A stretch of DNA of 64,000 nt from Escherichia coli. GTDB lineage: Bacteria; Pseudomonadota; Gammaproteobacteria; Enterobacterales; Enterobacteriaceae. The stretch lies in assembly GCF_045037415.1 (NCBI RefSeq), contig NZ_CP173438.1; one strand, 5' to 3'. Below are positions 3,917 through 4,076 of this stretch, one piece after another. The translations under genes and the position numbers were made by a program. The notes under the pieces are model-generated. The model searched no databases, was not told where the DNA came from, and was given only the letters and a program-made list of their open reading frames with translations. The first letter of the stretch is position 1; each line of letters begins with the position of its first letter.

Positions 3917-4076
3917 GTGTATAGAAAAAAGATCGAACTCAGTTATACACAATGTTATACGCAAAGATGTATAGATTCCATTAGAAATAATGGTACTTTG
4001 CTGGACGAGTATAAGGAGATGATATCAGTTAAAACAGTGAGTTATGGAATTAATTGAACTTAGTGAGAAGTGTTCA

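Follow-up and report, generated by a model that had tools for sequence, protein, structure and literature searches.

Probable Arm-Type Integrase Sites between argW and the Integrase Gene of a P4-like Satellite in Escherichia coli

[quoted passage not shown] These 8-mers are most probably arm-type binding sites for the element's own integrase (Int), a reading to which we assign a probability of about 85% from comparative sequence analysis. The earlier note on this DNA had raised two possibilities for the word cluster: an operator for int autoregulation, or an excisionase/integrase arm-type array. The evidence strongly favors the integrase array: the word occurs on both arms of the element, the positions of the copies are kept in 69 of 79 related loci while the word itself co-varies, related elements carry their own word on their far arms, the layout is the one annotated in phage P4, and Int has an Arm-DNA-binding domain.

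The Element and Its Integrase

The window analyzed here is a 64,000-nt stretch of E. coli chromosomal DNA (contig NZ_CP173438.1). A P4-type tyrosine integrase of 391 aa, identified from its open reading frame and Pfam domains, is encoded on the minus strand at 2741–3916. The integration target, the tRNA-Arg(CCT) gene argW, lies at 4077–4151 on the same strand and in the same orientation as int, and was identified by ARAGORN and by the RefSeq annotation. The att core, which reads ATGGTGTCCCCTGCAGGAAT on the plus strand, is located at 4076–4095 (minus strand), overlaps the 3' end of argW and belongs to repeat family D5. The remaining sequence between the att core and the int start (3917–4075, minus strand) constitutes the near, or int-proximal, arm, and contains the four sites, denoted A–D.

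A 1,531-bp stretch of the window was compared with other genomes and is 100% identical to E. coli strain SK1144 (locus L001). Of 5,426 complete E. coli genomes, 438 (≈8%) have the int-bearing version. In L001, the interval between dsdC and argW is occupied by a P4-like satellite of ≈11 kb, for which the RefSeq annotation gives an AlpA-like HTH protein, an Icd-like protein, a DUF927 primase (alpha-like), an ogr/Delta-like protein, a sce7726/sce7725 pair and Int. The annotation also lists a "P2 family phage major capsid protein" entry. The AlpA-type protein has 75 aa and matches Pfam Phage_AlpA at 5e-20, and its gene adjoins the far arm. The opposite end of the element has a second copy of the core (L001 10368–10387, outside the window), which is 20 nt long, 100% identical and separated from the first by 11,009 bp. 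Since this perfect 20-nt direct repeat bounds the element and its second copy is outside the window, the window contains the int-proximal arm only. The label of a P4-type island, given in the earlier note, is borne out by the P4-like gene content in RefSeq and by the 20-nt direct repeats that bound the 11 kb. The sce7726/sce7725 family gene pair (908–1789 and 1811–2761, plus strand) adjoins int as cargo and has no Pfam match; in the P4 record, the cII gene at the equivalent position is also labelled as sce7726 family.

Int consists of an N-terminal Arm-DNA-bind_3 domain (3.7e-26; residues 3–87, encoded by approximately nt 3656–3910), followed by Phage_int_M (2.7e-33) and Phage_integrase (2.2e-26). 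In the phage collection, the nearest matches to Int are integrases of the Sf6/IntS type, at ≈46% identity. [quoted passage not shown] The paper on the HAI7/HPI arm-domain structure appears in the reference list of PMC8138268. The N-terminal Arm-DNA-binding domain is the presumed reader of sites A–D.

Four Words Upstream of int

Starting from the core, the first of the four words is site A (3967–3974, plus strand), which reads ATGTATAG on the plus strand and CTATACAT on the int-sense strand. It is followed by site B (3955–3962, minus strand; TTATACGC on the plus strand and GCGTATAA on the int-sense strand) and site C (3943–3950, minus strand; TTATACAC on the plus strand and GTGTATAA on the int-sense strand). 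Site D (3917–3924, plus strand), found by inspection of the sequence and pattern search, reads GTGTATAG on the plus strand and CTATACAC on the int-sense strand; the int ATG (3916–3914) follows it without a gap. B and C form a tandem direct pair with a start-to-start spacing of 12 nt, in which B is the first copy in the int-sense direction and starts 114 nt past the core. A and D have the opposite orientation to this pair. Together, the four sites span -1 to -58 relative to the int ATG. Three of the 8-mers (3943–3950, 3955–3962 and 3967–3974) lie exactly where the earlier note had placed them, while the first had been placed at 3918–3925 and is instead found one position lower, at 3917–3924. 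Pattern search confirmed the orientations described there, with a direct pair (gtgtatag/atgtatag) set against two inverted words upstream of int, all within 58 bp.

The statistical weight of the repeat depends on how it is counted. Across the whole window, the pattern RYGTATAR is not enriched, with 12 matches found against 9.5 expected, and four of these 12 sit within the 58 bp. A back-of-envelope scan statistic for four matches in 58 bp gives ≈1e-6. We also made dinucleotide shuffles of the 160-bp, AT-rich intergenic stretch, which has a GC content of 32%. The 8-mer, chosen post hoc, reached at least four copies in none of 20,000 shuffles. In the unbiased form of the test, some 5-mer, counted together with its reverse complement, reached at least five copies in 11% of the shuffles (p ≈ 0.11). 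Because so many local shuffles match it, the repeat within the window alone is only suggestive and constitutes weak evidence; its reality rests on conservation and co-variation in relatives.

Two other candidate copies were considered and set aside. A fifth local RYGTATAR match, GCGTATAG at 3859–3866, lies inside int, where it encodes P-Y-T-L. It is probably coding sequence only, since 6 of 22 relatives use TAC as the Tyr codon. The sequence GAGTATAA at 4008–4015 was dropped as a site; it is not conserved in relatives.

The Far Arm

The same word is present at the other end of the element. In L001, the far arm (≈10446–10466, outside the window) reads GTGTATAActaaGTGTATAG in the int-sense direction and lies ≈58 bp from the 20-nt core copy. 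It contains a tandem pair, GTGTATAA/GTGTATAG, with a spacing of 12 nt, which starts 78 nt before the core copy. The 15-nt sequence around site C, ACTCAGTTATACACA, matches the far-arm sequence ACTTAGTTATACACA in 14 of 15 positions (repeat family D16). The arm word GYGTATAR and the core ATGGTGTCCCCTGCAGGAAT have nothing in common.

Two further features were observed on this side of the element. A pentanucleotide microsatellite, (CCCAG) repeated ≈12 times, separates the far-arm GTGTATAR pair from the AlpA/Vis-like gene at L001 10508–10570; a change in its length could alter the geometry between the arm and the promoter. A promoter-like site (TTGCCA-16-GATAAT, 10 of 12 consensus positions) runs from L001 10661 to 10634 on the minus strand and reads toward the core. 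Known only as a match to the consensus, this site would face int once the element has excised, like the 3'-end promoter of ICEKp1.

Conservation and Co-Variation in Relatives

The relatives consisted of 80 integrase loci from a genome-collection scan, with Int identities of 96–41%. For a footprint alignment, we used the 14 relatives that have the GTATA word, which have Int identities of 96–63% and integrate at argW as well as at other tRNA targets. The invariant columns in this alignment are GTATA of site B, G-T-.-T-A of site C, a GTTC between C and D, and TATAC-C-ATG of site D, while the spacers diverge. Site C is nearly invariant. Site A is clade-specific, being kept in about 9 of the 14 aligned relatives, namely the closest argW relatives and L021. 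It is a possible extra arm site, which we hold with lower confidence than the other three.

Over the wider set of loci, the arrangement is retained while the sequence of the word changes. Two direct copies 10–13 nt apart (mostly 12), together with a downstream inverted copy near the start codon, were found in 69 of 79 loci, compared to about 3 expected from shuffles. At least ten different words are used, depending on lineage, among them GTGTATA, GGGGGCA, GGGGGTA, GTTGGTA, GTGAGTA, TGGGTAA, TGATGGT and ACCGGAT. In distant relatives at other tRNA genes, the positions are kept and the word has changed in every copy at once, as in GGGGGCACaatcGGGGGCAT...TGCCCCCAATG, GGGGGTATctttGGGGGTAC...ATACCCCCAAGTG and GTTGGTATAtgcGTTGGTACA...TATACCAAC. 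A comparison with the int upstream regions of related P4-type elements, which the earlier note had put forward as a check, thus came out in favor of the array, with B, C and D conserved in the 14 close relatives and the layout present in 69 of 79 loci.

An exact search for the core repeat placed the far end inside the 10-kb flank in only 4 of 36 close loci, and a search for tandem pairs of each element's own word recovered more. Downstream of int, 19 loci proved to have such a pair on the same strand, in most cases perfect and spaced at 12 nt, whereas host flanks of equal length, searched as a control, yielded three imperfect matches. In eight loci (L008, L017, L018, L021, L031, L060, L062 and L067), the own-word pair lies 70–84 nt before the copy of the tRNA 3' end (the core). 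Both arms of the element thus change their word together, as expected of arm-type sites; neither an RNA hairpin nor a promoter upstream of int can explain this. In five loci (L012, L024, L035, L036 and L039), int is preceded by a copy of the core only, without a full tRNA gene, which points to elements arrayed in tandem at a single tRNA site.

Comparison with P4

P4 integrates at leuX, whereas the window element uses argW. Its attP "arm sequence repeats" are reportedly due to Pierson and Kahn in 1987. The P4 record (NC_001609) contains several features with the label "attP arm sequence repeat", each annotated as a 12-mer. One repeat (3915–3926, plus strand) overlaps the int start and is the counterpart of site D; those at 3942–3953 and 3954–3965 (both minus strand) are the counterparts of sites C and B, respectively. 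On the other side of the core (4078–4097), there is a pair at 4151–4162 and 4163–4174 (minus strand). The P4 sequence reads ...GGGGGCACaaaaGGGGGCAT..core..GGGGGCATaattGGGGGCATcttaacttcgattagaaatgTGCCCCCaaATG. Like the window element, P4 thus has a tandem pair with 12-nt spacing, an inverted copy at the int start and a far-arm tandem pair. Even the distances are nearly the same: the core-to-B distance is 113 nt in P4 and 114 nt in the window element, and the distance between the far pair and the core is 77 nt and 78 nt, respectively. The two elements are also alike in being carried by a P4-like satellite and in the domain set of Int.

There are differences as well. Site A has no counterpart among the annotated P4 arm repeats, and the P4 repeat inside int (3621–3632) has no conserved counterpart in the window element. 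The P4 word is GGGGGCAY, as opposed to GTGTATAR (GYGTATAR) in the window element, and the specificity is therefore different despite the homologous layout.

Integrase Residues and the Arm Word

To relate the word to the protein, the N-terminal domains of the integrases were aligned against the words, and switches were counted on a tree of the non-arm part of the protein, from residue 101 onward. One alignment column, occupied by R52 in P4 and by M50 in the Int described here, stands out. It contains Arg in all 14 integrases assigned to the GGGGGCA class, including L031, in which site C reads GGGGGTAT while the other four sites have GCA. In the integrases with GGGGGTA, the residue is Leu (12 of 12). 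The tree indicates at least five independent switches. Among the Rhodanobacter loci L048, L050 and L054, the arm word of L050 has switched from GGGGGCAA to GGGGGTAA. The integrases of L048 (GCA) and L050 (GTA) are 93% identical beyond residue 100, compared to 75% in residues 1–60, which suggests a localized exchange or fast divergence of the arm-binding module in L050. The GTGTATA word of the window element goes together with a distinct residue set, GLSL..WRFRY..KPKMI.

Hold-out loci were used to examine the association between Arg and a C at position 6 of the word (the Arg/C6 rule). Four of them (L041, L066, L070 and L063) agree with it. The rule is not universal, because L052, L073 and L075, which have KRNT-type domains, have C at position 6 with Thr instead of Arg in the column. 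It is conceivable, although we would not yet bet on it, that arm word and Arm-DNA-binding domain together constitute a recognition code which can be read and which has switched repeatedly, with direct readout of the base by the residue. If such a residue–base contact is direct, arm specificity would be predictable from sequence and could be re-engineered.

Other Elements in the Near Arm

Between sites C and D lies a further conserved element, GTTCGATC in the int-sense direction (3931–3938, minus strand), whose GTTC (columns G59, T60, T61 and C62) is invariant in the 14 relatives. The element reads GTTCAAT or GTTCGGT in relatives, and CTTCGAT is found at the same place in P4.

GTCCA/GTTCA-like words with a periodicity of 10–11 nt were observed at window positions ≈3990–4006 and ≈4045–4062 (int-sense GTCCAgcaaaGTACC and GTTCAattaaTTCCA). 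They make up two clusters between the core and site A, and take the clade-specific forms GTCCA, GTCTA and GTCAA. The AlpA/Vis-like directionality factor, or another accessory protein, may bind to these words. More generally, the AT-rich middle of the near arm and its periodic words may be where accessory proteins bind.

A permissive consensus scan of 3700–4300 predicted neither a sigma-70 promoter nor an intrinsic terminator. There is no Shine–Dalgarno sequence before int, and site D occupies that position, as it does in most Enterobacterales relatives. This suggests that translation initiation of int is intrinsically weak or occluded.

Alternative Explanations

We considered the possibility that the inverted pairs A–B and C–D act as RNA, forming stem-loops in the 5' leader of an argW–int co-transcript that attenuate transcription or hide the start codon, in which case the DNA words as such would be irrelevant. 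The setting is suitable, with argW ending 160 bp before int, both genes oriented alike, and no terminator or int promoter predicted in between, which is the geometry of ICEKp1. Furthermore, the minimum free energy (MFE) fold includes both the A–B and the C–D hairpin, and across the integrase family the two members of the inverted pair C/D change together. However, the fold of the near arm is unexceptional, at -23.5 kcal/mol compared to -22.0 +/- 3.1 kcal/mol for shuffles (z = -0.48), with short, A/U-rich stems, and for this reason RNA structure was rejected as the main explanation. It also leaves unexplained the tandem direct copy B at its fixed 12-nt spacing. The main objection is that it cannot account for the far-arm tandem pairs of the same word, which are outside any int leader when the element is integrated. 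We therefore regard RNA stem-loops as an unlikely primary explanation, although an RNA-level contribution of C...D, or an additional role of site D in RNA structure or translation beside DNA binding, may exist. The words might also be seen as -10-like hexamers (GTATAA/TATAAC) of an int promoter, with their repetition incidental. TATAAC in B and C does resemble TATAAT, and in KplE1 the P'1 arm site of IntS overlaps the -10 box of PintS (PMC2951348). The absence of any sigma-70 promoter passing the scan of 3700–4300 and the presence of the word on the far arm both argue against this. Moreover, G/C-rich words such as GGGGGCAT take the same positions in relatives and cannot be -10 boxes, so that -10 elements are excluded as the conserved feature; as an account of the words in the window element, they are very unlikely.

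Binding by the AlpA/Vis-like excisionase rather than by Int would fit with the 75-aa Phage_AlpA protein encoded next to the far arm, and P4 Vis is described as lowering int expression in PMC2951348 and PMC7286903. Nevertheless, the layout equals that of the repeats labelled as attP arm sequence repeats in the P4 record, the word co-varies with residues in the N-terminal domain of Int, and the GTCCA-like periodic word on the core side of site A makes a better candidate site for such a protein. Nothing supports these particular 8-mers as excisionase sites, and this part of the earlier proposal appears highly improbable. The last alternative, that an AT-rich word recurs by chance in intergenic sequence that is itself AT-rich, draws on the shuffle result and on the lack of window-wide enrichment described above. 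It is refuted by the comparative data, in which exactly these words are conserved while the spacers diverge, the layout recurs far above the shuffle expectation and the far arms carry copies; we give it practically no weight. Arm-type binding by Int thus remains the preferred reading.

Discussion

Arm-type sites are a feature of a long-known kind, and it is the recognition word that differs here. A literature search on the arm sites of this argW element found nothing specific. In the proposed mechanism, the N-terminal Arm-DNA-binding domain of Int would contact the words and its C-terminal domains the core. In bridging arm and core, probably with IHF-type bending, Int would then build the intasome for integration (attP × argW), and Int together with the AlpA/Vis-like factor would form the excision complex. 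Because the 58 bp immediately ahead of the int start are taken up by the near-arm sites, Int occupancy should also lower int expression: Int bound to B, C and D, up to the start codon, would act in negative autoregulation.

The general principle is shared with phage lambda, whose Int is heterobivalent and binds arm-type sites (P1, P2 and P'1–P'3) on both arms, distinct from the core, in an intasome assembled with bending proteins. The family of the arm-binding domain differs, being Arm-DNA-bind_3/DUF4102 in the window element. To our knowledge, lambda int is not preceded by its own arm sites or autoregulated through them.

A closer precedent for autoregulation is KplE1 (CPS-53), in which the arm-type sites P'1–P'3 of IntS, at argW, overlap the intS promoter (Panis et al. 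2010, PMC2951348), P'1 lying over its -10 box. Negative regulation of int by IntS and by the directionality factor TorI has been demonstrated in this system (PMC2951348). Like the window element, KplE1 uses argW as target, has int just downstream in the orientation of the tRNA gene, and has its arm-type sites between core and int. The two differ in that the IntS sites have a TAAA motif, compared to GTATA in the window element; KplE1 has a mapped sigma-70 promoter in attL, while none is predicted here; the directionality factor is TorI in KplE1 and an AlpA/Vis-type protein in the window element; and KplE1 is a prophage remnant rather than a satellite. In P4, both Int and Vis lower int expression, as summarized in PMC2951348 and PMC7286903, and the latter also describes Int-mediated repression of its own gene for IntI of PAI I536. 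By analogy with P4, KplE1 IntS and PAI I536 IntI, autoregulation of int through the near-arm sites, as the earlier note had suggested, is plausible.

The source of int transcription may be the tRNA gene itself. The integrase of ICEKp1 is also of the P4 type. According to Liu et al. (2026, PMC13023037), int of ICEKp1 starts 161 bp after tRNA-Asn and is co-transcribed with it, with stem-loops in the 5'-UTR that attenuate expression; int is transcribed from the tRNA promoter when the element is integrated and from a far-end promoter after excision. The window element is similar in having int ≈160 bp downstream of the tRNA gene, a flank without a promoter of its own, and inverted repeats in the leader. 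In both elements, there is a promoter-like site at the far end that reads toward the core, which in the window element (L001) is a consensus match only. By analogy with ICEKp1, int may be read through from argW. The ICEKp1 leader is explained as RNA stem-loops, and arm sites are not discussed in the sections of PMC13023037 consulted, whereas in the window element the unexceptional RNA fold and the far-arm copies favor a role at the DNA level.

The analysis yields an att-site map for the locus, consisting of the core, the near-arm sites A–D and the far-arm pair, which is useful for annotating island borders, for predicting mobility and for designing excision and integration assays. It does not overturn the current understanding of these elements, and its modest added value lies in the family-wide co-variation. 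From Enterobacterales to Rhodanobacter and Burkholderia, P4-type integrases share the arm-repeat layout known for P4 since the 1980s, with a word that drifts. The words surveyed here, taken together with their integrases, could define how Arm-DNA-bind_3 reads DNA, and could aid tools that delimit tRNA-borne islands.
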